A DNA stretch of 64,000 nt from Alphaproteobacteria bacterium (GCA_965200265.1 OZ241357.1:1731003-1795002), one strand, 5' to 3'. Positions 3,538-29,309 are shown, counted from the stretch's first letter. Numbers and translations: made by a program. Notes: generated by a model from the sequence alone, not told the origin.

Positions 3538-3618
3538 CTGGCCGGTGGCCGGTGGCCAGTGGCCAGTTGCCGGCACCTGCCGGCACCGATCACCGGCAAC
3601 CGGCAACCGTCCACGGCG
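3538..3618. repeat. REP-like hairpin element made of 7-bp repeats (CCGGTGG/CCAGTGG ... CCACCGG/CCACTGG) around a CCGGCACCGATCACCGG centre
   Basis: Read directly in the sequence. Same family as the copies at 8664, 26314 and 19589. It lies in the divergent intergenic region between the MTase and rnd. Confidence 0.7.
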
Positions 3619-3695
3619 GGCGCGGGCGGGGGAATCCCTCTATGCTGCCGCGGCGCCGCGAGGCGTCGACCCGCAACAGGAACGGCGATCCGGTC

Positions 3696-4874
3696 ATGGC
3701 CGCGAACCTGGTGAGCAACACCCCGGAACTGATCTCCGCCTGCCGGCGGCTCCGCGCCGCCGACTATGTCGCGGTCGATACCGAATTCATCCGCGACAAC
3801 ACCTACTGGCCCCGGCTCTGCCTCGTGCAGGTCGCCGGCGAGGCCGGGGCGCTCGCGATCGACCCGCTCGGCGCCGACCTCGACCTGAAGCCCTTTCTCG
3901 AGCTGCTGACGGACGAGAGCGTGCTCAAGGTGTTCCACGCCGCGCGCCAGGACGTCGAGATCTTCCACTTGCTGGGGGCCATGCCGGCGCCGCTCTTCGA
4001 TACGCAACTCGCCGCGATGGTCTGCGGTTTCGGCGACGCCGCGGGATACGAGACCCTCGTCAAGCGCCTGCTCGGCCATGCCGTCGACAAGTCGTCCCGG
4101 CTTTCCGACTGGTCCCGCCGCCCCCTGAGCGAACGGCAGATCCGATACGCCCTCGACGACGTGGTCCATCTTCGCGGCGTCTACGCCGAGCTCGCCCGGC
4201 GGCTGCGGGACTCGGGACGCGAACGATGGCTCGCCGAGGAACTCGCCCTCCTCACCGACCCGGAGACCTACGCCAACCCGCCGGAAGAGGCCTGGCGGCG
4301 GATCAGGAGCCGGAGCGCCAAGCCGCGCCACATGGCCGTCCTGCGGGAGCTCGCGGCCTGGCGCGAGCGCGCGGCGCAAGCGCGGGACCGCCCGCGAAAC
4401 CGCGTGCTCCGCGACGAGGCCCTGGCGGAAATCGCGGCGCATCCGCCGAGGAGCGCGGCCGACCTGAAGCGGATGCGCGGCCTCCCGAAGGGCCTGCCGA
4501 CCCGGGCCGACGGCGAAACGATCGCGCGCATCGTGGCGGACGTCATGGCGCTGCCGGAAGGAGACCTTCCCCGGCCGGAGGCCCGGTCGCGCCCGAACAA
4601 GGGCAAGGCGCCGCTCGTCGAACTGCTCAAGGTGCTCCTCAAGGCGAAATGCGAGGAACACGGCGTGGCCCCGAAGCTGGTGGCGACGGGCGACGACCTC
4701 GAACGCATCGCGGCCGGCGACAAGCACGGGATCCCGTCGCTGACGGGATGGCGCCGCGGGCTTTTCGGCGAGGACGCGCTGCGGCTGACGCGGGGCGAGG
4801 TCGCGCTGACGGCCGATTCGCGCGGCATCCGGCTGATCGGCGCGGCCCCGCCGGACGGCGGCGGCCCGGCATGA
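3696..4874 (+). CDS. rnd: Ribonuclease D (3'-5' exonuclease plus HRDC domain)
   Basis: MAANLVSNTPELISACRRLRAADYVAVDTEFIRDNTYWPRLCLVQVA... is a DEDDy exonuclease motif region, with an HRDC-like C-terminus. The ATG at 3696 is the C-terminal third of track ORF 471..4874. Confidence 0.9.
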   Translation: MAANLVSNTPELISACRRLRAADYVAVDTEFIRDNTYWPRLCLVQVAGEAGALAIDPLGADLDLKPFLELLTDESVLKVFHAARQDVEIFHLLGAMPAPLFDTQLAAMVCGFGDAAGYETLVKRLLGHAVDKSSRLSDWSRRPLSERQIRYALDDVVHLRGVYAELARRLRDSGRERWLAEELALLTDPETYANPPEEAWRRIRSRSAKPRHMAVLRELAAWRERAAQARDRPRNRVLRDEALAEIAAHPPRSAADLKRMRGLPKGLPTRADGETIARIVADVMALPEGDLPRPEARSRPNKGKAPLVELLKVLLKAKCEEHGVAPKLVATGDDLERIAAGDKHGIPSLTGWRRGLFGEDALRLTRGEVALTADSRGIRLIGAAPPDGGGPA

Positions 4875-4898
4875 CGGACGCCGCGGCGCGCCGGCGGC

Positions 4899-6434
4899 CT
4901 ACGCGCCGGCCTCGATCCGGCGCCGCGGCGCCAGATTCAGGCATCGCGCGACGGACGCGAGCCGCCTGTCGACGAGTTCGCTGTAAAGGCAGGAGTCCTC
5001 GGGGCGCATGTGGAGCACCGCCTCGCCGGCGGCCCGCTCCAGCCGGGTGCGCGCGAGAACGCCGGGAGCGCCGCCGGAGAGCGTGAGCCCGAGACGGAGC
5101 GCAACCCCGACGAGCTTCGCCCGTTCGGCCGTCGCCAGGTCGACGAGGGTTCGCGCGGGCTCCGTGACCGGCGCGTCGCCGGCGCCGTGATGCCGCGCGT
5201 GAACGGCCAGCGCGACGAACGCGCGCCCGGCGTGATCTATCCCGACGACGGGCGCCCGCAACACCTCCTCGAAGGCCTGCGCCGCGCGGTAGCCGGGGTG
5301 CGCGCGCCAGGCGACGTCGGACAGCAGACAGGCCGCCAGGCGCAACCGGCGGTCTTCCGGGCCTTCCTCCCCGAACAGGGGCGCCATCCACGCCGCCAGT
5401 TCGTCGCCCGTATCCCCGAACCGCGAGGCGCGCGCCGCGAACGCCCGGCACCGGTCGATCAGCGGGTCCGCGGCCCGGACCTCCTCCGGCAGGCGCTCGT
5501 GCAGCAGGCCCTCGCGGAGCCCGCCGGCCAGGAACATGACCCGTCCGGGCCGCAGGCGGCGCAGGACCCGGGAGAGGACGGCGGCGGCGGCGGGGAGCGA
5601 CTCCAGCCGGCGCTGGTTCACGCCCTCGATTCTCGCCAGGGAGTCGGCGCCGAGGCCGGAGATCAGGTCCGCCAGGGCGGCCGCCTCCTCCCGCGCGATC
5701 TCGTACTGGTGGACGATACGCAGCGGATAGTCGCGCCGCGCCATGTGGATGCGCGCCAGCGAGCGCCACGCGCCGCCGACGGCGTAGAAATCCTTCTTCC
5801 GCGCCTTCCCGAGCCAGGCCACCTTGTCGAGGGCGCGGTCGGCGGCGGCGATGCGCTTGCCGGGCGCGAGACCGGTCAGGCGCAGCGCGCCCAGAGGCAG
5901 CGTCACGCCGTCCCCCGCGGCGCCCGACTCCAGCCTCACCAGTTCGAGGCTGCCGCCCCCCAGGTCGCCCATGACGCCATCGGCGCGGGAGAGCGCCGAC
6001 GTGGCGCCCAGGGCCGACAGGCGCGCCTCCTCCGCCCCGGACAGGACGCGCACCTCCAGACCGCAGGCGTCGCGCGCGCGGGCGACGAACGCCGGCCCGT
6101 CGGCCGCCTCGCGCACGGCCGCGGTCGCCACCGCCTCGGGGACGCCGGCGCCGAGCTCCCGCGATAGGGCGACGAACCGCCCGATCGTGGAAAGGGCGAG
6201 GTCGACGCCGCCCGCGTGCAGCGCGCCGGTCTCGGCGAGGTCGCGGCCGATGCCGCACAGGACGCGCTCGTTGAAGACCGGCAGGGGCGCGCGCACCAGG
6301 CCTTCGAAGACGACCAGCCGGACGGAGTTCGACCCGACGTCGATGACGGCCCGCCGCCGCCGCGCGCCGGCGATGCCGGATCGCGGGTGGCGGACGCGGG
6401 CCTCGGGCGCCGGGTCAATCGCCGTCGAGGACAA
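4899..6434 (-). CDS. ppx: Exopolyphosphatase (Ppx/GppA family)
   Basis: N-terminal [16 protein letters not shown] Ppx/GppA signature, about 511 aa. The start may be an internal codon; the gene overlaps the ppk 3' end by 20 nt (operon). Confidence 0.85.
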
Positions 6435-8601
6435 GGTGCGGGTCGGGGGCGGACGTCTCCAGCGCCTTGCCGCGCCCGGAAAGACTGGGATTGGTCATGA
6501 AGTAGGTATGCGCCGAAAACGCCTCGTCGTCCAGTTCCGATCTCGCATAGGTCCCGTCGGGCTGGAGCGTCCAGCTCTGGGCCTTGTCCTTGAAGTTGGC
6601 GACCATGATCTGATCGAGGACCTGCTCGTGAACCGTCGGGTTCTCCAGCGGGGTCAGCAGCTCGACCCGCCAGTCGAAGTTTCTCGGCATCCAGTCGGCG
6701 GACGAGATGAAGACCCGGGCGCCGGGCGACGGCAGGCCGCGGCCGGCGCCGAAGCAGACGATGCGGGAGTGCTCCAGAAAGCGGCCGATCACGCTCTTCA
6801 CGCGGATGTTGTCCGAAAGGCCGGGCACGCCGGGGCGCAGGCAGCAGATGCCGCGCACGACGAGGTCGATCTGCACGCCGGCCCGGCTCGCCCGGTAGAG
6901 GGCGTCGATGATCTTCCCGTCCACCAGGGAGTTCATCTTCGCCCAGATCTCGGCCGGACGGCCCGCCTTGGCGTGGGCTATTTCCCGGTCCACCATGTCG
7001 ATCAGCGTGCCGCGCAGGTTCTGGGGCGAGTTCACGAGCCGCTCCAGATGGCGGGGCGGGGCGGTTCCCGTCATGTAGTTGAAGATGTCGGCGGCATCGC
7101 GGCCGATGGCCGGGTCGGAGGTGAAGAACGAGAGGTCCGTGTACACCCTGGCGGTGACCGGGTGGTAGTTCCCGGTGCCCAGATGCACGTAGGTCTCGAG
7201 GCCGTCCTTCTCGCGCCGGACGACGAGCGAGACCTTGGCGTGCGTCTTCAGCGAGACGAAGCCGTACACGACCTGCACGCCGGCGCGCTCGAGGTTCCGC
7301 GCCCAGCGCAGGTTGGCCTCCTCGTCGAACCGCGCCTTGAGCTCGACCAGGGCGGTCACGGACTTGCCGGATTCGGCCGCGTCGATCAGCGCCGCGACGA
7401 TCGGCGAATCATCGCTGGTGCGATAGAGGGTCTGCTTGACGGCGATCACGTCGGGGTCCGCCGCCGCCTGTTCGACGAACTGCACGACGACGTCGAAGCT
7501 CTCGTAGGGATGATGGACCACGAAGTCCTTCTCCCGGATCGCGGCGAACAGGTTCCCCCCGGCTTCCCTGACGCGCTCCGGGTAGCGCGGACTGTAGGGC
7601 GTGAACAGCAGTTCGGCGCGCTGGCCGAGGATGAGCTCGCTGGTGTCTCCGAGGCCGAGAATCCCGTCGACCACCGTCACCGCGTCATCCGGCGCCCCGA
7701 TCTCCGCGGCGACGAACCGGCGCAGGTCCTCGGGCATTCCCGAATCGACGAACAGCAGCGTCACGCTGCCCCGGCGGCGGCGCTTGATCGCCGATTCGTA
7801 GAACCGGATCAGATCCTCCGATTCGTCCTCGATCTGTATGTCCGAATCGCGCAGGACCCGCACCAGCCCTTCGCCCGCGACGTCGTAGCCGGGGAGGAGC
7901 TGGTCGACGAACATCCGCACGATGTTCTCGAGCGAGAGGAAGCGGGCGGCGTCGCCGGGCAGCCGGAAGAACCGATCGACCTGATGCGACAGCGGGATCA
8001 GGGCCTGCAGCACGTGGCCGTCGCTCCGGCGGGACAGCTGAAGCACCATCGCGAAGCCGCGGTTCGGAAGGAACGGAAAGGGATGGGCCGGGTCGACCGC
8101 GATCGGCGTGAGCACGGGAAACACGCGCTCGAGAAAGAGGCGGCCGATGAACTCCCTGTCCGCGTCCGTCAGATCGGCGGTATCGAGCACGACGATGCCG
8201 GTCTCGCGGAGCCGCTGCCGGAGCGCCGACCAGACGCGCGCCTGGTCGGCCATCAGCCTGTTGGCGCGGGTGTTGATCTCGGTCAGCTGCTCTTCCGGAG
8301 ACAGCCCGTCCTGGCTGAGCTCGTGGACGCCGGCCGCGATCTGGCCGCGGATGCCGGCCACGCGAACGGTGTAGAACTCGTCCAGGTTGACCGCCGAGAT
8401 CGACAGGAACCGGAGCCGCTCCAGCAGCGGGTGGGACGGGTTCTCGGCCTCCTCGAGGACCCGTTCGTTGAACGACAGCCACGACAGCTCGCGGTTGATG
8501 TAGCGCTCGCTCGACCGGAGCGGCGCCTCGTCGCGGCCGTCCCCGCCGGCCGCCGCGTCCCGGTCCGTCGTCTCGCGAGGTCGCGTCTCGGCGATCGTCA
8601 C
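6415..8601 (-). CDS. ppk: Polyphosphate kinase 1
   Basis: [22 protein letters not shown]... and the PPK1 domain series. The likely start is GTG at 8601, preceded by GGAGGAGG. The first ~47 residues of the track ORF (8742..8602) lie over the REP element and are not coding. Confidence 0.9.
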
Positions 8602-8663
8602 GTGGCCTCCTCCGATTTCCCCGCACCGCGCCGGCGGGCGGATGCCCGGCATGGTAGCAGATG

Positions 8664-8763
8664 CGCCGGTGGCCGGTTGCCGGTGGCCGGTGGCCGGTTG
8701 CCAGTGGCCGGTGGCCAGTTGCCAGTGGCCGGCACCGATCACCGGTCACCGGCCACCGGCCAC
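8664..8763. repeat. REP-like 7-mer-array hairpin element
   Basis: ...gccggtggccggttgccggtggccggtggccggttgccagtggccggtggccagttgccagtggccggcaccgatcaccggtcaccggccaccggccactg. Divergent intergenic region between ppk and the FAD monooxygenase. Confidence 0.7.
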
Positions 8764-8887
8764 TGATAACAAGGCCGCGATGCCGGCGGGACGGAGTTTG
8801 ACCCCGAACGGCCGGCCGCATATTACGGCGGGCACGCCGGGCGCGCGCCGCGTCCGGCCGCCGCCGAAACCGATCCGGACGAGGGCG

Positions 8888-9982
8888 ATGCCCCTTTCCC
8901 GTCACGCCGAAATCGCCGGCGCCGGATTCGCCGGCCTGACCGCGGCCGCGGCGCTGGCCCGGCGCGGGTGGTCGGTGCGCGTGCACGAGAAAGGCCCCGA
9001 GGTTCGCGCGTTCGGCGCCGGGATCTGGATCTGGACGAACGGCTGGCGCGTCCTCAAGGCGGTAGGCGCCTACGCGCGGGCGCGCGAGGACGGCTACGAA
9101 AGCCCCTCGATCGAGAGATACGACCACAACGGCAGGCTACTCATGCCGCCGGTCCGGTTCGCCGACCACGGCGCCCGGATGATCGCCGTCGTCCGGCAGA
9201 AGCTGATCGAGGCCCTGCTCGAGACGTGCCTCGAGGCGGGCGTCGACGTCGTCACGGATTCGGAGGTGTCGGGCGCCTCCGAGGACGGCGAACTGAAAAC
9301 CGCCGCCGGCGGGACGTTTCCCGCGGACCTCGTGATCGGCGCCGACGGCGTCAACTCCGCCGTCCGCGATTCGCTGAAGCTGACCCGGCGCCGCAACCGC
9401 CTCGCCTACGGCGGCTCCCGGCTGCTCATCCCGCGCACCGGGGAAGAGATGGCGGACGCGACGGACCGGGTCCTGACCTACGTCAACGGGGAAAGAAGGC
9501 TGCTGTACACGCCCTGCGGGCGGACGCTGACCTATCTCTGCTTCACCGTCCGCCCCGACGACGCGGAGGGCCGCGCCGTTCCGGTCAGAAAGAAGGCGTG
9601 GATCGAGTCGTTCCCGATGCTGGAACACGTCCTGGAGCGCGTGGGGACCGACGGCCGCTGGGACCGCTACGAGGTGATACGGCTCAAGCGCTGGACGCGC
9701 GGGCGGGTCGCCATCGTCGGCGACGCGGCTCACGCCATGGCGCCCTCGCTCGGGCAGGGCGGCGGGTGCGCGATGATGAACGCCCTGTCCCTGGCCGCCG
9801 CCGCCGGAGACGCGGCCGACGTTCCCGGCGCCCTCGCGGCGTGGGAGGAGCGGGAGCGGCCGCTGACCGAACGGGCGCAGCACGTCTCCTCGATGTTTTC
9901 GGGCCAGCGGACGGACTGGCGGCGGCGCGGCATATTCGAAACGGCCCGTCACCGGCCGACGGGCGCCGAGGGCATCGACTGA
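8888..9982 (+). CDS. FAD-dependent aromatic-ring monooxygenase (class A flavoprotein hydroxylase, salicylate/3-hydroxybenzoate hydroxylase-like)
   Basis: HAEIAGAGFAGLTAAAALARRGWSVRVHE (dinucleotide-binding GxGxxG), DLVIGADGVNSAVR, and the GDAAHAMAPSLGQGGGCAMMNA motif. Paralogue of 16442..17644. Confidence 0.85.
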   Translation: MPLSRHAEIAGAGFAGLTAAAALARRGWSVRVHEKGPEVRAFGAGIWIWTNGWRVLKAVGAYARAREDGYESPSIERYDHNGRLLMPPVRFADHGARMIAVVRQKLIEALLETCLEAGVDVVTDSEVSGASEDGELKTAAGGTFPADLVIGADGVNSAVRDSLKLTRRRNRLAYGGSRLLIPRTGEEMADATDRVLTYVNGERRLLYTPCGRTLTYLCFTVRPDDAEGRAVPVRKKAWIESFPMLEHVLERVGTDGRWDRYEVIRLKRWTRGRVAIVGDAAHAMAPSLGQGGGCAMMNALSLAAAAGDAADVPGALAAWEERERPLTERAQHVSSMFSGQRTDWRRRGIFETARHRPTGAEGID

Positions 9983-10022
9983 GCGCCCGTCCCGGAATAC
10001 GCCGTCCCGGCGGGGAACGCGC

Positions 10023-11472: not shown

Positions 11473-11643
11473 TCACGGGTCCTTCCGTCAATTGCGGCGC
11501 CGGCGGGCGCAACCCGGCGGCGCGGCGTGTTGAACGAACCGGAGGACGGATAGTATACAATCGGAACCGCCGGACGAAACGCCGGCGCGGACGCGGGCCG
11601 GACTCCCCGCGCCGCATTGTTCGAGGGGAAACGGGAGGGCGCG

Positions 11644-12057
11644 ATGCCGGGCGACGGGAAGGTGACGATCGAACTGATGGAAGAGATCAACGCGGCGTTC
11701 AACAGCCGCGATGCGGACCGCGTCGCGTCCTATTTCGCGGAAGACGGCGTCTTCGCCACCGCCCGCGGACCCGACCCCTGGGGCCACCGCGTACAGGGCC
11801 GCGACAACATCCGCGACTTCGTGGCCAGGCGGTTCGAGGTGGTGCCCGACATGAAATGGGAGCACGACTACAAGTACGTGACCGAAAATCGGGCGGTCAC
11901 CGTATGGACCGTCACCGGCAAGAGCGCCGGGGGAGAGACGTTCAACTACCGGGGCTGCGACCTGTACGACTTCAAGGACGGCAAGATCACCTACAAGGAC
12001 ACGTTCTGGAAGATCGTCGACCCCGACGACCTGGGCGGGCTGCCGGCTTCGGAGTAG
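11644..12057 (+). CDS. SnoaL-like / NTF2-fold protein (ketosteroid-isomerase-like)
   Basis: [38 protein letters not shown]... is the typical SnoaL_2 pattern. RBS GGGAGG. Confidence 0.6.
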
Positions 12058-12139
12058 CGGAGTCCGGGCGCCGGTCCCGGCCCCGCGGGATCATGCCTCC
12101 GCCGGCGGGGCGAGCGGGCGGCCCTCCGCGCCCCGGACG

Positions 12140-14379: not shown

Positions 14380-14474
14380 GCGGCTTGACTCGCGAAAGGC
14401 GACTCGCGGACAATCCCCTTTCACGATCACGCACCACGCACACACGATCGCACGTGCGAAACGGGGAGGCGGGA

Positions 14475-15503: not shown

Positions 15504-15506
15504 CGG

Positions 15507-15540: not shown

Positions 15541-15598
15541 CCGTCCGTGGCGGCCGCCTCCCGCGCCGGGACGCCGCAGGCCGAAGGACGTTCGCTTC

Positions 15599-16411: not shown

Positions 16412-16441
16412 GCCGTTTCCCGAGGCGCCGGGCGCCGGCGC

Positions 16442-17644
16442 ATGACCCGGCACGCGGAGATCGCCGGCGCCGGCTTCTCCGGCCTCGCGATGGCCGCCGC
16501 GCTGGCCCGGCGCGGGTGGTCGGTGCGCGTCCACGAGCGGTCTGCCGAGGTGCGGGCGTTCGGCGCCGGGATCTGGACGTGGGAGAACGGCGTCCGCGCG
16601 CTCGCCAGCATCGAGGCCGCCGACGACGCCTTCGCCGACTGCATCCCGCCGCCCCGATACCTCGAACGGGACGCCGGGCAGCGCATCATCCGGTCGCTGC
16701 CCTTCCCGCCGCCACGCAGCGCCAGCGGCGTCCGCATGTTCTGCATCACGCGGCAGCAGCTCCTCATGGCCATTCACGGCGCGGCGATGCGGGCGGGGGT
16801 GGAGGTCGCCGTCAATTCCGAGGTCGTTTCCGCGCGGCCCGAAGGCGCACTCGAAACCGCCGACGGAAGGACCTTGCGGGCGGACCTCGTCGTCGGCGCG
16901 GACGGGGTCAATTCCCGGGTCCGCGATTCCCTCGGCCTGCTGCGAAGCCGCCGCCGGCACGCGGACGGGGGGATCCGGGTGCTGGTGGCGCACGAGGGAG
17001 GCTACGGCGACACCGAGGAAGGGAGCCTGCTGCGCTCGTGGTGGAGCGGCCGGCGGCGGTTGCTGTACACGCCGTGCACGAGCGACGTCTTCTACATGTG
17101 CTTCACGGGACGGGCGCGGGACGGCCAAGCGTCGCGGGTTCCCCTGCACAAGGAGTCGTGGATCCGCCATTTCCCGTTCATGGAATCGATGATCGACCGC
17201 GTGGGCGAGGAGCAGCGCTACGACGTCTTCGAAACGGTGAAGTCCAAGCGCTGGCGCGCCGGCCGGGCGGCGATCATCGGCGACGCCGGCCACGCCATGG
17301 TTCCGGGGCTCGGCCAGGGGTGCGGCATGGCCATCTGCAACGCCCTGTCGCTGGCCGGCCATCTGGCCGATCACCGGGACGTCGAGCGCGCGCTCGACGA
17401 ATGGGAAACGCGCTGGCGCCCGATCACGGAGCACGCCCAGCTCTGGTCCCGGATCAGCTGGCCGCTGACGCAGATCCCGGTCGGCGTCGCCCGCTGGGCC
17501 TTCCGGACTCCGGCGGTTCACGACTGGGTGGCGGCCCAGCGCAGCAAGCCTTCCCGCGTCATGCCCCACGGCAGCGAGAACGACCCGCGCTGGCTCCCGC
17601 GGGACGCGGCCGCGCCGATCGCAACGCCGGGCGGGAAGCCATGA
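16442..17644 (+). CDS. FAD-dependent aromatic-ring monooxygenase, paralogue of 8888..9982
   Basis: MTRHAEIAGAGFSGLAMAAALARRGWSVRVHE..., DLVVGADGVNSRVR, GDAGHAMVPGLGQGCGMAICNA. The N-terminal 30 aa are nearly identical to the paralogue. Confidence 0.85.
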   Translation: MTRHAEIAGAGFSGLAMAAALARRGWSVRVHERSAEVRAFGAGIWTWENGVRALASIEAADDAFADCIPPPRYLERDAGQRIIRSLPFPPPRSASGVRMFCITRQQLLMAIHGAAMRAGVEVAVNSEVVSARPEGALETADGRTLRADLVVGADGVNSRVRDSLGLLRSRRRHADGGIRVLVAHEGGYGDTEEGSLLRSWWSGRRRLLYTPCTSDVFYMCFTGRARDGQASRVPLHKESWIRHFPFMESMIDRVGEEQRYDVFETVKSKRWRAGRAAIIGDAGHAMVPGLGQGCGMAICNALSLAGHLADHRDVERALDEWETRWRPITEHAQLWSRISWPLTQIPVGVARWAFRTPAVHDWVAAQRSKPSRVMPHGSENDPRWLPRDAAAPIATPGGKP

Positions 17645-19191
17645 AGAAAACGCCGCTGTTCGACATCCATGTGGCGTCGGCGAGACGCATGGTCAACCTC
17701 AAGGGCTTCGCCCGCCCCGTCGAGTACGCGGGCCACGCCGAGGAGCACCGGGCCATCCGGGAACGGGTCAGCCTGTGCGACGTGTCCCACATGGGCGAGA
17801 TCGAAATCAGCGGTCCGGACGCGCCGGCGCTGGTGGACAGGCTGATCACGAACGACGCCGCCCGCCTCGACGCGGGCCAGGCCCTCTACACCGTCATGTG
17901 CGATGAACGCGGCCACGTCATCGACGATCTGGTCTGCCTCCGCCTGGCGGAAGACCGGTTCCTCTGGGTCGTCAACGTCACCAGGACCGACGAGGACCAT
18001 CGCTGGGTCCTGAAGCACGCCCAGGGCCTCGATACGCACGTCCGCGACCGGTCGGCGGAACTCGCCCTCCTCGCCCTCCAGGGGCCGTATTCGAGCGAGG
18101 TCCTGCAAAAGGTCGTCGCGGCCGACCTTTCGGGAATGGCCTACTACCGGCTGGCGGAAACCACCGTCACGACCGACGAGACGGAGGCCCCCTGCATCGT
18201 CAGCCGCACCGGATACACCGGCGAACGGGGATACGAGATCTGCGTTTCCCGGGACTTCGCCCCGTCCGTGTGGCGGGCGCTGATGCGCGCCGGGCGTCCC
18301 CTGGGCATCGCGCCGCACGGGGTCGCCGCCCGCGAGAGCGCGCGCACCGAAGCCGGCTACCTGCTCAACGGCAACGACATCGACGACCGGACCTACCCCC
18401 ACGAGGTCGGTCTCGGCTGGGTGGTGAAGCCGCACAAGGACTTCATCGGGCGCGACGCGCTGGCCGCCGTCGCCGAAGGGGGAGCGCCGCGGAAGCTGGT
18501 GGGGCTGGAGATGGCGGGACGGGTCACGATCCGCCACGGATACCCCGTCTTCAGGGACGGCGAGCGGATCGGGCGGGTCACGAGCGGCCCGCTGTCTCCC
18601 GACCTGGTGGGCGGCGCCGCGAGCCTGGGGCTGGGATTGGTCGCCAGCGCCCACGCCGGGGACGGCGGCGTCCTCCAGATCGGCGTGCGCGGCGCGCGCC
18701 ACGATGCGCGAATCGTCCCCTACCCCTTCCGGGAACGGCGGGTGCGCGACGACGCCAGGGTGGACACCCTGTCTCCCTGCGGGCTGCGCTACGGCGAGGA
18801 TCATTTGTGGGTCGGGGCGGAGTCCGACGGCCGGGCCACGATCGGGCTCACCGACTTCGGACAGCGGTATCTGGGGGAAGCGCTGTCGGCGGTGCTGCCG
18901 GTGCCGGGCGACCGCATCGTGCGGGGATCGCCGTTCGGCTGGCTCGACGCCTACCGCAGGCCCTTCGACCTGATCGCGCCGGTGTCGGGGACGGTCGTGG
19001 CGGTGAACGCGGCCGCGGTCGAACGACCGGGCGACGTCAACCGCTATCCCTACGCGCGCGACGGCCTGATCCGGATCGAACCCGACGATGCCGGGGAGAT
19101 CCCGGCGCTCGCCGGGTTCGCCGCCTACACCGAGACCACGCGCCGGCTCGAGCGCTACGACTCCTGGTCCCGGGACCTCAGGCTGACCTGA
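17641..19191 (+). CDS. gcvT: Aminomethyltransferase (GcvT-type, folate-dependent) fused to a C-terminal GcvH-like domain that lacks the lipoyl-lysine
   Basis: The N-terminal ~360 aa align closely with GcvT (TPLFDIHVASARRMVNLKGF...CDVSHMGEIEISG..., GYTGERGYEI). The C-terminal ~150 aa align with the genome's own GcvH (LRYGEDHLWV..GLTDFGQRYLGE..), but ESVKAAS is replaced by LDAYRRP, so there is no lipoylatable Lys. Start overlaps the preceding stop (ATGA). Confidence 0.8.
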   Translation: MKKTPLFDIHVASARRMVNLKGFARPVEYAGHAEEHRAIRERVSLCDVSHMGEIEISGPDAPALVDRLITNDAARLDAGQALYTVMCDERGHVIDDLVCLRLAEDRFLWVVNVTRTDEDHRWVLKHAQGLDTHVRDRSAELALLALQGPYSSEVLQKVVAADLSGMAYYRLAETTVTTDETEAPCIVSRTGYTGERGYEICVSRDFAPSVWRALMRAGRPLGIAPHGVAARESARTEAGYLLNGNDIDDRTYPHEVGLGWVVKPHKDFIGRDALAAVAEGGAPRKLVGLEMAGRVTIRHGYPVFRDGERIGRVTSGPLSPDLVGGAASLGLGLVASAHAGDGGVLQIGVRGARHDARIVPYPFRERRVRDDARVDTLSPCGLRYGEDHLWVGAESDGRATIGLTDFGQRYLGEALSAVLPVPGDRIVRGSPFGWLDAYRRPFDLIAPVSGTVVAVNAAAVERPGDVNRYPYARDGLIRIEPDDAGEIPALAGFAAYTETTRRLERYDSWSRDLRLT

Positions 19192-19248
19192 ACGTCCATC
19201 TGTTCTCCCCTCGGGGCGCCACTCGGACCTTCGCGAGACACGGCCGAG

Positions 19249-19760
19249 GGTGTGCAAGGTGTGCAATTCGACGCACCGGGTCCGCCCTCCATACGGTGTG
19301 CAAGGTGTGCCATTCCGGGCGCGATCCGGACCTCCGCGGAATGCGCCCGACGGTGTGCAAGCTGTGCAATTCGACGCGCCGGGTCCGCCCTCCATACGGT
19401 GTGCAAGCTGTGCCATTCCGGGTACGGCCCGGACCTCCGCAGGATGCGCCCCACGGTGTGCAAGGTGTGCAAGTCGGCGCGCCGGGCACACCCCCCATAC
19501 GGTGTGCAATGTGTGCCATTCCGGGCGCGGCCCGGACTTCCGCGAGATGCGCCCGACGGTGTGCAAGGTGTGCAAGTCGGCGCACCGTGCCGCGACTGGC
19601 GACTGGCGACTGGCGACTGGCCACCGGCGACCGACCTTAGTGTGCAACGTGTGCCATTCCGGGCGCGGCCCAGACTTCCGCGGAATGCGCCCCCACGGTG
19701 TGCAAGGTGTGCAAGTCGGCGCGCCGCGTCCCGCTCGCCGTTCCCGGCGCCGGGCGGGTT
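19249..19760. repeat. Composite tandem repeat array (about 104-bp dimer unit, roughly 4.5 copies). Each half-unit begins GGTGTGCAAGGTGTGC(A/C)A. Unit B carries the hairpin CATTCCG...CGGAATG.
   Basis: Read directly. Half-units start near 19249, 19295, 19352, 19399, 19455, 19501, 19558, 19639 and 19698. It sits in the convergent intergenic region between the gcvT fusion (+) and the SDR gene (-). Confidence 0.8.
19589..19636. repeat. GCGACTG heptamer microsatellite / REP-like insertion inside the tandem-repeat array
   Basis: gccgcgactggcgactggcgactggcgactggccaccggcgaccgacc shows the same 7-mer logic as the other REP-like elements. Confidence 0.6.
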
Positions 19761-19781
19761 TCACGGACGCCGGGGCCGCCG

Positions 19782-20561
19782 TCAGAACAGCGCCGGATTC
19801 AGCCCGCCGTCCAGCAGAATGCTCTGGGCCGTGATGTAGCCCGCCCTGTCGCCGCACAGGAACGCGCAGGCTTCGCCGAATTCCTCCGGCGCGCCGAACC
19901 GGCCGACCGGGATGCGCGCGATCCGGCGCTCCGCGGCCGCTTCCGGACTCACCCCCTCGCGCCTGGCGACGGCCTCGGTCGTGGCGCGAAGGCGATCGGT
20001 AAGGATCTCTCCGGGAAGCAGGTTGTTGATCGTCACGTTGTGCCGGGCGACTTCACGGGCGATGGTGCCGACCGCGCCCGTGAGGCCCGCCCTCGCGCCG
20101 TTCGACAGCACCAGGATGTCGACGGGCGCCTTCACGGAACCGGACGTGACGTTGACGATGCGGCCCCATCGGCGCGCGATCATGCCGTCGACCGTCGCCT
20201 GGATCAGGGCGATGGCCGTCAGCATGTTGGCGTCCAGCGCCGCGATCCAGTCCTCGCGCGTGAAATCCCGAAAGTTGCCGGGCGGCGGACCTCCGGCGTT
20301 GTTGATCAGGATGTCCGGCTCGGGACACGCGCCCAGCGCCGCCTCGCGCCCTTCCTCGGTCGTGACGTCGCCGACGACGGCCGTGACCTGCGCCGCCGTC
20401 GCGGCCCGGATCTCCGCGGCGGTCGCCTCGACGGTTTCCGGGGTGCGGCCGGTGACGGTCACGTCGACGCCTTCCCGCGCCAGCGAGAACGCGCAGGCCC
20501 TGCCGAGGCCGCGACTCGAGGCGCACACGAGCGCCTTCCTTCCCGCGATACCGAGATCCAT
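19782..20561 (-). CDS. SDR-family oxidoreductase (3-oxoacyl-ACP reductase-like)
   Basis: N-terminal GRKALVCASSRGLGRA (TGxxxGxG), the NNAG motif, and the classical SDR active-site region. Confidence 0.85.
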   Translation of the reverse strand: MDLGIAGRKALVCASSRGLGRACAFSLAREGVDVTVTGRTPETVEATAAEIRAATAAQVTAVVGDVTTEEGREAALGACPEPDILINNAGGPPPGNFRDFTREDWIAALDANMLTAIALIQATVDGMIARRWGRIVNVTSGSVKAPVDILVLSNGARAGLTGAVGTIAREVARHNVTINNLLPGEILTDRLRATTEAVARREGVSPEAAAERRIARIPVGRFGAPEEFGEACAFLCGDRAGYITAQSILLDGGLNPALF

Positions 20562-20563
20562 GC

Positions 20564-21244
20564 CTAATCTCCTTCCAGGTCCTGACGAAGGGCCAGTATC
20601 CGGCGCGCGAGCGGAACCGTTATCTCCCGCCGGTCGGCGAGCGAACGCGCGTCGAGCGCCGCGACGATATCACGGGCGGCGCGGAACGAACGCTCCATGT
20701 GGCGCACCAGATACGTCACGACCGCGTTTCCGACCCGCAGCTGCCGGTCGGCGAGCAGCTTGACCAGAACCGCCGCGAGCAGCGCGTCGTCCGGCGGCCC
20801 GACGGCGACCGCTCCCAGCGCGTTGACGCGGGAGCGAAGATCGGGCAGGTCCACGTCCCAGGACCGGGGCGGACGCCGGCTCGTCAGCAACAGGCTTCCG
20901 CCGCGCTCGACCGCGGCGTTGTAGGTATGGAGAAGGCCCCGCGCGTCGACGCCCGAATCGACGTCCTCGACGACCAGATCGGCGGGCCGCGCGTAGGCGC
21001 CCGCCGCCGTCACCGCGGACGCCGGCGCGACGCCGGCGCCGGAATGCGCCCGGAAGACGTGCGCCAGATGCGTCTTCCCGCACCCGGCGGGACCGTGCAC
21101 GACGAGCCCGCGGCCGGGCCAGCGGGGCCAGCGGTCGAGCCAGGCCACCGCGTCCGAGTTGCACGGGGCGACGAGGAAATCGTCCCGGCACAGGGCCGGC
21201 CGCCGGGCGAGGTCCAGGGCGAGCTGCGCCCCGGCCCGGCTCAA
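20564..21244 (-). CDS. hda: DnaA-regulatory inactivator Hda/HdaA (DnaA-related AAA+ protein)
   Basis: ...LVAPCNSDAVAWLDRWPRWPGRGLVVHGPAGCGKTHLAHVF... (Walker A), about 226 aa. The probable TTG start overlaps the upstream gene's stop (TTGA). Confidence 0.7.
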   Translation of the reverse strand: MSRAGAQLALDLARRPALCRDDFLVAPCNSDAVAWLDRWPRWPGRGLVVHGPAGCGKTHLAHVFRAHSGAGVAPASAVTAAGAYARPADLVVEDVDSGVDARGLLHTYNAAVERGGSLLLTSRRPPRSWDVDLPDLRSRVNALGAVAVGPPDDALLAAVLVKLLADRQLRVGNAVVTYLVRHMERSFRAARDIVAALDARSLADRREITVPLARRILALRQDLEGD

Positions 21245-22311
21245 GGCTCGCCCCGCTTCTCTTCCAGGAAATAACCGCTCCGGCGGTAGCGCTCGACCCA
21301 GAAGCGGACGAAGACCCCGATCACCGCGGCCGCGGGCACGGCCACGAGGATCCCGACGATCCCGAACAGGGCACCCCCCGCCATGAGCGCGAATATGACC
21401 CAGACCGGATGGAGCCCGATCCGTTCGCCGACGAGGCTGGGCGTCAGATAGAACCCGTCCAGGGTCTGTCCGATCACGAACACCAGGGCGACGAGACCCA
21501 GGGGCAGCGGATCGAACCCGAACTGCACCAGCGCCACGACGAACGCGGTTCCGAAACCGATGATGGCGCCGACGTAGGGTATGAACGCGAGCAATCCGGC
21601 GCCGAGGCCGATGAGCAGGCCGAACTCCAGCCCGACCAGCGACCATCCGACGGCGAAGATCACGCCCAGAACGAGGGCGACCGTGCCCTGGCCGCGAATG
21701 AAGCCCGACAGCGCCCGGTCGACGAGGCGCATCTGCTCGCGGATCGTCTCCAGGCTCCGCCGGGGCAGGAGGGCGTCGACCCGGGCGACGACACGGTCCC
21801 AATCGCGGATCAGGTAGAAGGCCACGACCGGCGTGATGAAGAGCAGCGAGAGGAAGTTGAAGAGAACGATCCCTCCGCGCCAGATGCCCGCCAGCGCCGC
21901 GATCCAGGCGGCCGACCCTTCCGCCAGCCTCGTCACGATGCCCCGCGCCTTTTCGAGGTCGGCGGCGTCCAGACCGGGAATCCGGCCCTCCAGAACGAGA
22001 AGGGCCAGCTTGCGAATCCGTTCCGCGTACTCGGGGAGCCGCTCCAGAAAGCCCGTGGTCTGGGCCTCCAGCGGCGGAAACAGGACGAGGATGGACAGGA
22101 TCGCGAGCACGAAGAACCCGCCGACGATCGTCGTCGTCGCGAGCGTCCGCGAAAGGCCGGCCGCCTCCAGGCGATCCGCCGCCGGGTCGAGCAGATAGGC
22201 GATCGCGAACCCGACGACGAACGGCAGCAGAATGGTCCGCAGGAGATAGAGGAGAAGCACGGCCACGGCGATTCCCGCAGCCCAGACGAGGAGTCGGTCG
22301 TACCGGATCAT
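21241..22311 (-). CDS. AI-2E family transporter (PerM/YdiK, UPF0118) membrane protein
   Basis: 356 aa, 8 predicted TM segments, characteristic AI-2E topology. Confidence 0.8.
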   Translation of the reverse strand: MIRYDRLLVWAAGIAVAVLLLYLLRTILLPFVVGFAIAYLLDPAADRLEAAGLSRTLATTTIVGGFFVLAILSILVLFPPLEAQTTGFLERLPEYAERIRKLALLVLEGRIPGLDAADLEKARGIVTRLAEGSAAWIAALAGIWRGGIVLFNFLSLLFITPVVAFYLIRDWDRVVARVDALLPRRSLETIREQMRLVDRALSGFIRGQGTVALVLGVIFAVGWSLVGLEFGLLIGLGAGLLAFIPYVGAIIGFGTAFVVALVQFGFDPLPLGLVALVFVIGQTLDGFYLTPSLVGERIGLHPVWVIFALMAGGALFGIVGILVAVPAAAVIGVFVRFWVERYRRSGYFLEEKRGEP

Positions 22312-22850
22312 CGAGCCCGCTCCATGCCGCTGTCCCGGACCCAGTTGACCAGGTATCGGGCGCCCGACAGGGCGGTGGTCGCCGCGACGGCGTATATCAG
22401 CACCGTGGCCAGCACCTCCAGCCCCACCCGGAACGCGACGTCCCCCAGCACCGTCGCCGCCAGGGAAATCTGCAGGACCGTGTTGATCTTGCTGATGAAC
22501 AGGGGCGTCGGCCGCATGGGTTGGGACATGGTGTACGCGAGCAACGCCCCGCCGACGATCAGGAGGTCGCGGGACACCACGAGGATGACCAGCCAGACGG
22601 GCAGGATCTCCTGATAGCCGAGCGTGATGTATATCGACACGAGGAGCGTCTTGTCGGCGATGGGGTCGAGAAACCTGCCGATTTCGGTATCCATCCCGAA
22701 CTGCTTGGCGAGGTAGCCGTCGACGGCGTCGGACACCCCGGCGAGCACGAAGACCACGAACGCGCCGACGTATGCTTCCTGCAACAGCAGCCAGACGATG
22801 ACGGGAACGGCGAGGAGGCGTCCCAGGGACAGGGCGTTCGGGAGATTCAC
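22308..22850 (-). CDS. pgsA: CDP-diacylglycerol--glycerol-3-phosphate 3-phosphatidyltransferase
   Basis: NLPNALSLGRLLAVPVIVWLL...GAFVVFVLAGVSDAVDGYLAKQFGMDTEIGRFLDPIADK is the CDP-alcohol phosphatidyltransferase motif D-G-x2-A-R-x8-G-x3-D-x3-D. GTG start at 22850 overlaps the upstream stop (GTGA). Confidence 0.85.
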   Translation of the reverse strand: MNLPNALSLGRLLAVPVIVWLLLQEAYVGAFVVFVLAGVSDAVDGYLAKQFGMDTEIGRFLDPIADKTLLVSIYITLGYQEILPVWLVILVVSRDLLIVGGALLAYTMSQPMRPTPLFISKINTVLQISLAATVLGDVAFRVGLEVLATVLIYAVAATTALSGARYLVNWVRDSGMERAR

Positions 22851-24015
22851 TTGCCCGCGGCCCGCCTCTCGCCGGCCGTCGCGTCCGGCCTCCCGCGCGC
22901 GCGCAGGACCCAGGACCCGTTCTCCTCCACCAGATCGAGGTCGCGCTGCGCGAGGGCCACGGCCAGCTGCCGCGTCGATCCGAAATGGCGCAGCACCACC
23001 CGCGCCGCCTCCCGGTTTATCTCGACCATCTCCACCCCGCCGACCTCGGGCGCCAGGGACAGCCGGGATCGAACCTCCGTCCAGTCGGCGAGGCCCGAGA
23101 GCGGCACGCTCGCGTCGAGCACGCCCTCGTCCTCGAAGCGCAGGAGCATCAGGTGCTTCCAGTCGTCCTCGATCCGCGACGCGGCCTCGTCGGCGGCCCT
23201 CTTCAGGAGCGCGTCGACCATCGTCCGGGACGCGCCGCGGAAGCTCCCCACCGGCGTCGATCCGCTCTCCGATCCGTGCCGATGCAGGGTGACGGAAAGG
23301 CGCGGAACGCCGGTGGCGAGATCGTGGCGCAGGACGGCGTGGGCGACCAGCACGTCCGCGACCCCGTATCTCCGCGCGACCGCCGCCAGCGCCGTTTCGT
23401 CGCCGGCGACGGCCTGCTCCGCGCCGATGGCCGCGACGTCGGCCAGGTCGCCGAACGGCATGACGAACGGCACCGCCGATTCCACTTCCGCCCGCGTCCG
23501 CCAGGCCGCCCGCCAGGGATTCGGGTCGTCCCACAGGTTGCGGGCACCGGCCGCCTCGTACACCGGCAACACGAGCAGCGGCTTGCCCGGCGTCTCGCCG
23601 AACGGAATCCCGCTCCCCCGAAGCAGGGTCCTGACCCGATCCCTCCTGAAGCTCACCGTCAGGCCGGCCAGATACCGGTTCGGCGAGGTCTTTTCCCCCT
23701 CGATCTCGATTCCCCGGACCAGCTCGGCGATCGCGGCGTCCTCGAGCCTCGGTATCCGCGGATAATACGCACGCGAGGTGAGGCGGCGAATCAGGCGGTC
23801 CAGGGCCTCCCGCTGTCCCGACGCGAGGGCGATCCCGCGCGCCGCGATGGCCGTCTCCGCGACCGCGTCGACGCGGATGCCGGCGACGGAATAGAAGTCG
23901 GCGGACCGCGCCCGGGCCGTCGGATCCTCGGCGAAGGCGGCCACGTGCGGAACCATGCAGAGGACCATGCAGACAGGGGCGATTCGAATCGCCCCGCCGC
24001 CCACGGCGGGGATCA
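22847..24015 (-). CDS. DUF2066-family secreted protein (conserved alphaproteobacterial partner of pgsA)
   Basis: About 390 aa. With start 24015 the N-terminus MIPAVGGGAIRIAPVCMVLCMVPHVAAFA/EDP reads as a Sec signal peptide. Alternative starts at 23960 or 23948 would place the 20-bp palindrome in the 5' UTR. The track start 24118 is probably too long. Confidence 0.5.
23968..23987. promoter_or_regulatory. 20-bp perfect palindrome GGGGCGATTCGAATCGCCCC upstream of purM (candidate operator)
   Basis: Read directly. It lies 50-70 bp upstream of the purM ATG in the divergent DUF2066/purM control region. Confidence 0.4.
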
Positions 24016-24037
24016 TTGCAAACGGGCCCGGATTCGC

Positions 24038-25166
24038 TATGTTCGACGGACGCCGCGGCAGAATACCTGGGATCGAGGCCGCCATCAACAAGAACGCCCG
24101 GACCCCGGCCCCTTCCACGAACGCCTACCGCGCCGCCGGCGTCGACGTCGATGCCGGCGACCGGTTCGTGCGCGGGATCGCGCCTCTCGCCGCGGCCACG
24201 CGAAGGCCCGGCGGCGACGCCGAAATCGGCGGTTTCGGGGCCTTCTTCGACCTCGGGAGCGCCGGCTACGAGGATCCGATCCTCGTCGCCGCGACGGACG
24301 GCGTCGGCACGAAGCTGCTGATCGCGCGCGACGTCGGCCGGCATCGCGCGGTGGGCCGGGACGTGGTCGCCATGTGCGTGAACGACCTCGTCGTCCACGG
24401 CGCCGAGCCGCTCTTCTTCCTGGACTATCTGGCGATGGGAGAGCTCGACGCGGTCGCCGGGAAAGCCGTCGTCGAGGGCATCGCGGACGCCTGCGTCGAA
24501 GCCGGCTGCGCCCTCGCCGGGGGCGAAACGGCCGAACTGCCCGGCCTCTACCCGCCGTCCGGGTACGACCTGGCGGGGTTCGCCGTCGGCGCGGTCGAAC
24601 GCGGGATGCTGGTCACCGGCGAACACGTGCGGCCCGGCGACGCCGTTCTCGGTCTCGCCTCGAACGGGCTCCACTCGAACGGGTTTTCCCTCGTCAGATC
24701 GATCGTTTCCCGGCTGTCCCTGAGCTACGCCGATCCCGCGCCCTTCGAACCCGGACGGCCTCTCGGGCGCGCGCTCCTCGAACCCACGCGGCTCTACGTC
24801 GGCTCCTGTCTCGCCGCGGCCCGGTCGCGCCTCGTCCATGCCCTGGCGCACGTCACCGGGGGCGGGCTGGCCGGCAATCTCGCCCGCGTGCTGCCCGGCG
24901 ACGTCCGCGCCGAGATCGACGCCGCGTCGTGGCCCGTGCCGCCGGTGTTCCGGTGGCTCGTGAACGAGGGCGGCGTGCCGCCGGACGACGCCCTCCGAAC
25001 CTTCAACATGGGCATCGGCATGGCCGTCGTCGCCGCCGCCGGACGCGCGGAGGAAACCATCCGGCTCCTCGCCGACCGGGGCGAAACGGTCTTCCGAATC
25101 GGCGCCGTCGCGGACAGGACGGGAGAAGGCCCGAGCGTCGCGATCGAGGGAGACCTCGGATTGTGA
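24038..25166 (+). CDS. purM: Phosphoribosylformylglycinamidine cyclo-ligase (AIR synthetase)
   Basis: AYRAAGVDVDAGDRFV..., ATDGVGTKLLIA, LASNGLHSNGFSL. Confidence 0.9.
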
Positions 25167-25816
25167 CCCTGCGGGTCGGAGTCCTGATCTCGGGGCGCGG
25201 CGCCAACCTCCAGGCGCTGATCGACGCCTGCGCGGCGCCGGCGTATCCCGCCGAGATCGCGGTCGTGATCTCGAACGAGCCCGAGGCCAGGGGCCTGACG
25301 CGCGCGCGCGACGCAGGGATCCCGGCGGAGATCGTCGAGCATCGCGCGTTCGCGGACCGGTCGGCGTTCGAGGACGCGCTCACCGGCGCCCTCCGGCGCG
25401 CCGGCGTCGAACTGGTGTGCGCCGCCGGCTTCATGCGCGTCCTGACCGGGACCTTCCTCGACGTCTGGCGCGACCGCGTCGTCAACGTCCACCCGTCCCT
25501 GTTGCCCGCGTTCAGAGGCTTGGGAACCCACGAACGGGCCATCCGGGCGGGGGTCCGGTTCAGCGGCTGCACGGTCCATTTCATCCGCGCCGACCTGGAC
25601 GCGGGACCCGTCATCGTTCAGTCCGCCGTACCGGTGCTTCCGTCCGACACCCCCGACGACCTCGCCGCGCGCGTGCTCGAAAGCGAGCGCCGGTGCCTGC
25701 CCCTGGCCGTGCGCTGGATCGCCGAGGGACGGGTGCGCGTCGTCGACGAAATCGTCCACGTCGACGGCGCCGGCGGCCCCGCGGGCGCGTCGATCAACCC
25801 CCCGGACGCGCGCTAA
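25165..25816 (+). CDS. purN: Phosphoribosylglycinamide formyltransferase
   Basis: [20 protein letters not shown]..., [12 protein letters not shown]..., [18 protein letters not shown] start overlaps the purM stop. Confidence 0.9.
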
Positions 25817-26235
25817 CCGACGATCTCCTCTTCCCCGAAGAAGAAGGCGATCTCGTCCGCCGCCGTGCCCGGCGAGTCCGAACCGTGCACGCTGTTGGCT
25901 TCGATGGACTCGGCGAATTGCGCGCGGATCGTGCCGGGCGCGGCTTCCTCGGGGTTCGTCGCGCCCATGACGTCCCGGTTGCGCCGGATCGCGTCGTCGC
26001 CTTCCAGAACCTGAACCACGACCGGTCCCGACGTCATGAAGGCGCACAGCGCGTCGAAGAAGGGGCGCTCCCGGTGAACGGCGTAGAATCCCTCGGCGCG
26101 CTCCCGCGTGAGCCGGATCCGCTTCTGGGCGACGATGCACAGCCCGGCCCCCTCGAACTCGGCGTTGATGCGGCCCGTCAGATTGCGCCGGGTCGCGTCG
26201 GGCTTGATGATGGAAAGGGTGCGCTCGAGCGCCAT
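25813..26235 (-). CDS. ndk: Nucleoside diphosphate kinase
   Basis: [14 protein letters not shown]...NSVHGSDS (active-site His). Confidence 0.95.
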
Positions 26236-26313
26236 GAACGGCCGTCCTGTCGAAGCGGCGAATGGCGCGCCTTATAGCCGGAGCCCGGCGGCGCCGCAAC
26301 CGGCCCTGGGAGC

Positions 26314-26393
26314 GCCGGTGGCCGGTGATCAGTGACCGGTGGCCAGTTGCCAGTTGCCAGCACCGATCACCGGCCACTGGCCACTGGCCACTG
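26314..26393. repeat. REP-like 7-mer-array hairpin element
   Basis: gccggtggccggtgatcagtgaccggtggccagttgccagttgccagcaccgatcaccggccactggccactggccactg, located between the gcvP 3' end and the ndk 5' end. Confidence 0.7.
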
Positions 26394-26411
26394 AAAGCCC
26401 GGCGCTCCCGG

Positions 26412-29309
<2,898 letters not shown>

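Follow-up and report, generated by a model that had tools for sequence, protein, structure and literature searches.

Heptanucleotides are, according to Mrazek, Guo and Shah (2007, as cited in PMC4679880), the most abundant class of long simple sequence repeat (LSSR) in many bacteria, and are ascribed there to slippage. The GGGAATC heptamers of Xanthomonas, at ~190 per genome, count among them 70-75 convergent inverted pairs that could fold into a stem-loop or cruciform; from one species to the next the number of repeats changes, but not the type, which stays single or paired (Rehm et al. 2015, PMC4692102). Geobacter metallireducens has heptanucleotide families of its own (GGACCGG x4 at 49 loci, and sites of MTYCTGA x5; PMC2700814), and TAACTGA repeats occur in marine Beggiatoaceae, Cyanobacteria and Bacteroidetes as sets of 2-6 direct copies (169 of 170 direct) that end within a few nucleotides of start codons (MacGregor 2015, PMC4679880). 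Repetitive extragenic palindromic sequences (REPs) are 20-40-bp palindromes with a GTAG or CGTC tag, usually present in more than 100 copies per genome and linked to a REP-associated tyrosine transposase (RAYT; PMC2817692, PMC3116915, PMC3733652). Here we analyse three intergenic elements, E1, E2 and E3, in a 64,000-nt stretch of an alphaproteobacterial genome (GCA_965200265.1, OZ241357.1:1731003-1795002), which we call the window. Each joins an array of tandem heptamers to an array of complementary heptamers through a common apex.

We read E1-E3, with a probability of about 0.6, as a lineage-restricted family of dispersed non-coding hairpin elements of the kind in which heptamer LSSRs form inverted pairs. 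Paired heptamer elements were confirmed at all three loci, far above chance, on one plan: (CCRGTKG)n, then CCRG-CACCGAT-CACCGG, then (CACYGGY)n. The left arm has 4 CCRGTKG units in E1, 9 in E2 and 6 in E3, and the right arm has 3-5 complementary units (CACYGGY or AACCGGC). The features are listed here together with a fourth locus that is treated below.

3538-3618: E1, with left arm at 3542-3569 (4 units of CCRGTKG), core CCGGCACCGATCACCGG at 3580-3596 and right arm at 3590-3610
3590-3610: right-arm units of E1, CACCGGC AACCGGC AACCGTC
3568-3587: tandem duplication of 10 nt in E1, TGCCGGCACC twice
8664-8766: E2, with left arm at 8666-8728 (9 units), core at 8729-8745 and right arm at 8739-8766 (4 units)
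26308-26409: E3, with left arm at 26315-26356 (6 units), core at 26357-26373 (CCAGCACCGATCACCGG) and right arm at 26367-26394 (4 units)
26308-26318 and 26399-26409: outer, non-heptamer stem of E3, GGGAGCGCCGG/CCGGCGCTCCC
19589-19636, plus strand: solitary array at the fourth locus, (GCGACTG)x5.7 at 19592-19631, ending in GCCACCGGCGACC

The two-unit pattern CCRGTKGCCRGTKG, with one mismatch allowed, is seen 23 times where shuffles predict 0.57, and 22 of the 23 occurrences fall inside the four loci; Tandem Repeats Finder reports period-7 arrays at every locus. In heptamer register E1 reads CCGGTGG CCGGTGG CCAGTGG CCAGTTG / CCGGCACC-TG-CCGG CACCGAT CACCGGC AACCGGC AACCGTC, and E2 has nine CCRGTKG units / CCGG / CACCGAT CACCGGT CACCGGC CACCGGC CACTGAT. 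The left arm of E3 is CCGGTGG CCGGTGA TCAGTGA CCGGTGG CCAGTTG CCAGTTG, with two of the six units mirroring the core, and is followed by CCAG / CACCGAT CACCGGC CACTGGC CACTGGC CACTGAA. E1 and E2 carry the 17-nt core without change, and that of E3 departs from it at one position. It consists of a left-arm remnant, CCRG, and two fixed right-arm units, CACCGAT and CACCGG, and forms the apex of the hairpin. Gaps between the paired arrays are 7-17 nt, and the inverted repeats are 21-38 nt long and 79-91% complementary; the arms of E2 are unequal (9 versus 4-5 units). The heptamer portion of E3 covers 26314-26394, and with the outer stem its hairpin reaches 26308-26409. The elements end in CTGG/CCGG...CCGTCCAC (E1), GCG/CCGG...CACTGATAAC (E2) and GGGAGCG...CGCTCCC (E3). 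Of the marks of the Xanthomonas type, tandem 7-nt units in at least three copies are present at all loci, and convergent complementary arrays at E1-E3 but not at the fourth locus.

E2 and E3 are the strongest close inverted repeats of the entire window. The folding energy of the single-stranded DNA is -47.3 kcal/mol for E2 (z = -5.9 against shuffles) and -38.4 kcal/mol for E3 (z = -4.5); as RNA of the gcvP-sense strand, E3 reaches -84.8 kcal/mol (z = -5.7) in a structure that spans the whole element. E1 as it stands in the window forms no single long hairpin (z = -1.9). Its allele in another assembly of the same species (L010) lacks the 10-nt duplication and gives a clean hairpin whose apex is the core (z = -4.1).

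Genes were called by codon-position GC in the window, which has 70% GC, and were then scanned against Pfam; the scan covered 40 called genes over ~1-52.5 kb, with 10 further called genes outside it. All four loci lie between called genes, and these neighbours are housekeeping genes. E1 is flanked by the start of an Eco57I-type methyltransferase gene (3491, minus) and the ATG of rnd (3696, plus), its edges being 47 and 78 nt from these start codons. E2 is flanked by the GTG start of ppk (8601, minus) and the ATG of a FAD-monooxygenase gene (8888, plus), at 62 and 122 nt. E3 follows a stop codon: it begins 2 nt past that of gcvP (26412-26414, minus) and ends ~70 nt upstream of the ndk ATG (26235, minus), its hairpin being followed by CAGGGCCGGUUGCGG, with no U/T run as in an intrinsic (Rho-independent) terminator. 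At the Rfam gathering threshold the window holds only a tandem glycine riboswitch, with nothing at E1-E3, and no Y1_Tnp/RAYT or other transposase was found among the 40 scanned genes. Upstream of ppk, a GATCTG-N-TAMCAT block (8610-8660) is conserved in all close relatives, lying about 40-60 nt from ppk in L011, L013 and L295, and is likely to contain the -10 region. The ppk-proximal end of E2 abuts this block and sits where the relatives have a TTCRTG hexamer resembling a -35; on this putative promoter structure E2 would occupy the place of their ppk -35 region. A link between E1 and the adjacent methyltransferase was considered, the unit containing CCGG and GGCC; as neither E2 nor E3 lies next to such a gene, we took it for coincidence and gave it up.

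The original prediction, made before any comparison with other genomes, had described four copies of one architecture, in which heptamer arrays and their reverse complements surround a near-palindromic core and fold into long hairpins. E1-E3 agree with it to within a few bases in position, while 19589-19636 is a one-armed array with no core. Its paired arrays are confirmed, and its near-palindrome is instead the start of the right arm. Long hairpins hold for E2 and E3 but not for E1 in the window or for the fourth locus. The flanking genes that it named (methyltransferase/rnd, ppk/monooxygenase, gcvP-ndk) are borne out by gene calls and Pfam, the fourth locus does sit inside a tandem-repeat array, and the peptides quoted from spurious open reading frames (ORFs) were correct.

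Judged by Ppk, the nearest named relatives of the window organism are 67-68% identical (Oleomonas, Zavarzinia and Ferrovibrio). E1-E3 recur at the same sites in conspecific metagenome contigs from other samples (L001, L010 and L293), and their arms change in whole-heptamer steps. E3 is identical in L001, which has an identical Ndk. In L293, where GcvP is 99% identical, E3 has exactly one extra heptamer (+7 nt) and three substitutions, in two of which a G.U pair of the predicted stem becomes G-C or the reverse. L010, with a Ppk that is 100% identical, has an E2 shorter by 35 nt (5 units) with the core CCGGCGCCGATCACCGG, and an E1 built of different unit variants. Because the length differences between conspecific alleles are of whole heptamers, they point to slipped-strand mispairing.

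The comparison of orthologous intergenic regions that had been proposed as a check was thus positive in three conspecific assemblies, and it also covered relatives with 88-97% Ppk identity or 85-91% GcvP identity. No CAGT-type array was found in ~120 kb of non-redundant sequence from these (L008, L009, L011/L012, L013, L294, L295 and L296), where ~7.5 would be expected at the density of the window. For the lineage whose Ppk is 97% identical, the sequence on either side of the E1 and E2 sites can be aligned; what lies between is of similar length and cannot. This replacement sequence (read in L011) shows no fold above shuffles at either site (z = -0.4 and -1.2), and we therefore rejected the idea that the site is a conserved structural position with some hairpin in all relatives. 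A miniature inverted-repeat transposable element would have terminal inverted repeats, a target-site duplication and an empty site in relatives; no direct repeats flank E1-E3. Since the sites of the relatives hold different sequence, replacement, rapid divergence in place and gene conversion are not separable from insertion.

The solitary array at the fourth locus lacks both a core and an inverted arm and does not fold (z = +0.2 for 19592-19631), and a hidden left arm was looked for there and not found. Its unit, GCGACTG, is a variant of the right-arm type (ACTG register), and in the form CAGTCGC it is mixed with CAGTTGC units in metagenome loci L066, L099 and L132. The locus is related to E1-E3 at the class level only. 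It lies between two convergent genes, a gcvT-H fusion (17641-19191, plus), which places gcvT away from gcvH-gcvP, and a short-chain dehydrogenase/reductase (SDR) gene (19782-20528, minus), and takes the place of a 17-19-nt spacer in one unit of a 103-bp tandem repeat. This repeat (19224-19715, ~4.5 copies, two GGTGTGCAAGGTGTGC motifs per unit) occupies the 590-nt gap between gcvT-H and the SDR gene. The same two genes are only 39 nt apart in L013 and 52 nt apart in L296, and the entire 103-bp array is therefore lineage-specific.

A core-plus-arm scan (CCRGCACCGATCACCGGNNACNGG) of 185,579 species-representative genomes, among which the species of the window is apparently not included, gave six isolated matches, none of them beside a heptamer array. 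Four of the six (L002, L003, L006 and L007) were read and look like ordinary unique sequence, probably protein-coding. The absence of anything but such isolated, array-free matches suggests that the family defined by the apex is private to the species of the window, itself evidently outside that collection. The unit is far more widely spread. Three CCRGTKG units in succession were found at no fewer than 120 loci (at least that many) in JGI metagenomes, on contigs of 33-78% GC, and at 67 loci in IMG/VR viral contigs, and the core of E1-E3 is absent from the arrays at the 120 metagenome loci among the matches listed. Many of these arrays are inverted pairs like E1-E3, with loops of 1 to ~150 nt. 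Among the matches listed, the units form a continuum in a fixed CAGT/ACTG register (CAGTTGC, CAGTGGC, CGGTGGC, CAGTCGC), to which CAGTTAT and ACTGGGG also belong, the reverse complements of the published TAACTGA repeat and of CCCCAGT respectively. A search of the full-text literature for the literal repeat strings matched only unrelated primers.

The pairs have a nearly uniform polarity: (NNNCAGT)n comes first in 56 unique pairs and is reversed in 3, or 28 versus 2 when counted by contig, among the matches listed. E1-E3 share the CAGT-first polarity. Constancy of this kind in organisms of many sorts points to directionality, either of the process or of a binding factor. Loops elsewhere are genome-specific and common to many copies, as is AAAGGC[AC]AAA in L146, L187 and L190, and in this they parallel the private core of E1-E3. 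These last contigs are from a Mu-like phage (Gam-like protein, MuA-like transposase) in which a hairpin of the form (NTCAGTR)n-AAAGGC[AC]AAA-(YACTGAN)n stands after almost every early gene (L146 52-7691); the loops resemble a second heptamer family (GCAAAAG/GCAAAGG). Other pairs have arms that are not complementary, (GCCAGTT)n followed by (TCGTCAC)n, a unit in ACTC register (L046 5378-5540 and L075 10312-10412), so arm units can diverge or be recruited independently with register and polarity kept. In that viral collection, against the 67 loci above, three control heptamers matched for composition were found at 23, 27 and 42, and the idea that CCRGTKG is uniquely enriched is weakened by an excess of only ~2-fold in viral contigs. 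One of the controls, (GCCAGAC)n...(GTCTGGC)n, is itself a related paired family of CCAG type with the same CCAG-first polarity.

Our preferred reading, that of a lineage-restricted hairpin family, builds on what is observed at E1-E3, namely their architecture, intergenic location, persistence at orthologous sites, length change by whole units and absence from relatives. An ancestral copy would have spread to several intergenic sites in the lineage by some copy mechanism, so leaving three loci with the same private apex. The arms have since grown and shrunk by slipped-strand mispairing in the 7-nt steps seen between alleles, unit variants accumulating in each arm independently of the other. The elements may be mostly selfish or neutral, with local side effects. 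E3 would form a very stable stem-loop at the 3' end of the gcvP transcript, where it could protect the mRNA end in the manner of a REP or, alternatively, act before ndk as a partial terminator lacking a U-tract; E2 may have displaced the -35 region of the ppk promoter, and E1, within the divergent promoter region of rnd and the methyltransferase gene, could likewise have a local effect. Several points weigh against this reading. The term dispersed family rests on three loci in 64 kb and ~7 kb of conspecific flank (L010). No mobilizing enzyme was found among the 40 scanned genes, and there is no target-site duplication and no clean empty site, the E1 and E2 sites of relatives holding 70-100 nt of unrelated sequence. 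Promoter and terminator scans found neither a sigma-70 consensus nor a U-tract terminator at E1-E3, and the functional effects are ones that we infer. With two arms that differ in length and do not pair perfectly, the elements give no proof of selection for the hairpin itself. Finally, with only ~2-fold excess over controls in viral contigs, much of the wider CAGT-type family may reflect how common heptamer arrays are in general.

The original prediction assigned the elements to a species-specific family of REPs or bacterial interspersed mosaic elements (BIMEs). Restriction to the species stands, given the relatives and the genome collection; the class does not. True REP/BIME sequences would be miniature mobile palindromes, recognized as single-stranded hairpins and moved by a RAYT (an IS200/IS605-like Y1 transposase) encoded elsewhere in the genome, and the heptamer arrays would be secondary slippage of a head containing GT[A/G/T]G. 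E1-E3 are indeed intergenic, hairpin-forming, multi-copy and strain-variable with a common core; each unit contains GTGG or GTTG, related arrays contain GTAG (L098, L046 and L056), these GT-containing units recall the GTAG tag cleaved by the E. coli RAYT (PMC3733652), and a fixed polarity suits a strand- and end-specific nuclease. We nevertheless consider this origin unlikely. The elements measure 80-100 nt against 20-40 bp for REPs, neither end of E1 or E3 has GTAG or CGTC, both arms are tandem arrays and differ in length, a locus consists of one left and one right array with none of the alternation of BIMEs, and similar arrays after almost every early gene of a Mu-like phage are atypical of REPs. 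Size, the missing tag and the lack of a RAYT gene in the scanned part of the window leave the assignment unsupported. A purely local origin, in which slippage grows the arrays, intramolecular template switching makes the inverted arm and the shared core arises by convergence or gene conversion, accounts for indels of whole units, for the absence of target-site duplications and transposase, and for the solitary array of a variant unit at the fourth locus; heptamer arrays of many unrelated units are, moreover, common, to judge from our control heptamers and from Mrazek 2007 as cited in PMC4679880. It is made doubtful by the apex: three loci 5-18 kb apart have CCRG-CACCGAT-CACCGG in the same order, this is not a product of the repeat unit, and it is absent from the arrays of all other genomes examined. 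Genome-specific loops common to many copies exist elsewhere too, and simple template switching predicts no 56:3 bias in polarity.

Selection to regulate ppk, rnd and ndk through head-to-head arrays of sites for a DNA- or RNA-binding protein, such as a global regulator or nucleoid protein, would fit the conserved AGT/ACT trinucleotide register, the fixed head-to-head polarity and the position of E1 and E2 in divergent promoter regions, E2 in place of the ppk -35 region; heptamer families have been read as regulator sites in Geobacter and Beggiatoaceae. It is a distinctly improbable account all the same, because close relatives that have these genes, and promoters conserved in other respects, lack the arrays, the number and the sequence of units drift freely from one strain to another, no function is common to the neighbouring genes and no candidate binding protein was identified. 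That the elements are collapsed or chimeric palindromes produced by assembly or sequencing is scarcely credible: palindromic DNA of low complexity is prone to errors, and long-read assemblers produced some of the related contigs, but the same elements lie at the same loci in four independent assemblies of different samples, with whole-unit differences, and similar elements are present in short-read JGI assemblies.

A broader proposal, which we put forward tentatively and hold to be rather unlikely, is that E1-E3 are one GC-rich branch of a cross-phylum superfamily, 5'-(NNN[C/G]AGT)n-loop-(ACT[G/C]NNN)n-3', made or maintained by a dedicated directional mechanism. Besides the TAACTGA repeats, its members would include cyanobacterial units of STRR1 type and the intergenic hairpins that some Mu-like phages carry. 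Candidates for the mechanism are a hairpin- and sequence-specific nuclease of HUH type, or repeat addition at the 3' ends of breaks with end joining. If the superfamily is true, the polarity and the fixed AGT/ACT register would reflect that mechanism and not generic slippage, and the genome-specific loops would be marks of independent bursts of spread.

Other features surround the elements. A variable defence island adjoins E1: where Ppk is 97% identical, the lineage has a gene for Cas13a (PF28192/PF28350) just past the Eco57I-type methyltransferase gene (L011 19024-22187, L012 19090-22187 and L294 16621-19224), and at that position the species of the window (L010) has AAA_21/DUF4435, GMT-wHTH and DUF5131 genes. 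Upstream of E3 along the minus strand, the tandem glycine riboswitch (29934-30144, minus; aptamers of 69.7 and 39.1 bits) lies ahead of gcvH-gcvP, and directly upstream of this operon is a CRISPR array at 30230-31421, with 17 repeats of ~36 nt (CTTCAACGTCACCTCGGCGCTKGGCCGAGGGATAC) at ~72-nt spacing. Minus-strand genes beside it (31557-37605) match Cas_GSU0054, Cas_GSU0053 and a Cas3-like helicase, a type I-U/I-G-like set. Adjacent genes at 41145-42757 match HipA_C (kinase-like) and HIRAN domains and are possibly a toxin-antitoxin or defence pair. Towards the right end (56353-57627 and 57924-63992) there are three small minus-strand ORFs of 82-117 aa with 21-nt (7-residue) periodic repeats, and after them an ORF that exceeds 2,000 codons, is highly repetitive and runs up to the end of the window.

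E1-E3 are a local example of an already described and poorly understood class of bacterial heptamer repeats. For annotation they matter in that they create spurious long ORFs, which start or end inside the elements, in a genome of high GC. As hypervariable sites they could serve for strain typing of this uncultured alphaproteobacterium, and they offer a clear case from nature in which DNA close to a promoter has apparently given way, recently, to an inverted heptamer array, with E2 at the apparent ppk -35 position. The near-uniform polarity, if it is true genome-wide, would give a testable mechanistic form to the question of why heptamer repeats are so common in bacteria.

Compared with known systems, E1-E3 resemble REPs, BIMEs and REP doublets forming hairpins (REPINs) in being intergenic, hairpin-forming, multi-copy and strain-variable, and a plausible effect common to REPs and to E3 after gcvP is protection of the mRNA 3' end or partial termination. 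They differ from REPs in having 4-9 plus 3-5 tandem heptamers, with GTGG or GTTG internal to every unit and no terminal tag, and in number: three paired elements and one single array in the window and ~7 kb of conspecific flank, against the more than 100 per genome that are typical of REPs. Cyanobacterial heptamers of the STRR families, reportedly described by Mazel et al. in 1990, are said to have the units CCCCAGT, TTGGTCA and CAACAGT. On those units, E1-E3 share their CAGT register with STRR1 and STRR3. One metagenome locus (L078) mixes (ACTGGGG)n, the reverse complement of the first of these units, with (ACTGGCA)n. LSSR and STRR arrays also resemble E1-E3 in their period of 7 nt, in lying outside coding sequence, in length variation of the slippage type and in occurring sporadically across the phylogeny; those arrays are described as direct, whereas E1-E3 are defined by an inverted pair and a conserved apex.

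The TAACTGA repeats have a patchy distribution, too, and a close heptamer (TAACTGA versus CAACTGG or CCACTGG), and (TCAGTTA)n is mixed with (GCCAGTT)n in L016, L044 and L075. Unlike them, E1-E3 are inverted pairs and stand ~47-122 nt from start codons (E1 and E2) or after a stop codon (E3). Geobacter metallireducens elements share with E1-E3 the GC-rich tandem heptamers and a genome-specific multicopy family, some being drawn as strand-switching (paired) sites, but they are fixed at 4 or 5 units, occur within genes too and have other units. Likeness to the Xanthomonas GGGAATC repeats covers tandem 7-nt units in mostly intergenic positions, opposite-strand arrays lying close together, stem-loop or cruciform potential, a repeat number that varies while the type is kept, and confinement to particular lineages. 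E1-E3 differ in sharing a private apex, in the three or four loci seen against ~190 per genome, and in that two of the three elements lie between divergent genes, a position under-represented in Xanthomonas. The G4-forming GGGNATC family of Xanthomonas and Nostoc has a G3-4 tract in each unit, which gives G-quadruplex potential, and a preference for four units; the units of E1-E3 have at most GG and occur in counts of 3-9, and as CCRGTKG has no G3 tracts no G-quadruplex is expected. E1-E3 should thus not be filed as REP/BIME, though when transcribed they may work like REPs, as with the 3'-end stem-loop of E3; closer to them is the heptanucleotide LSSR in inverted pairs, as described in Xanthomonas (PMC4692102) and Geobacter (PMC2700814).

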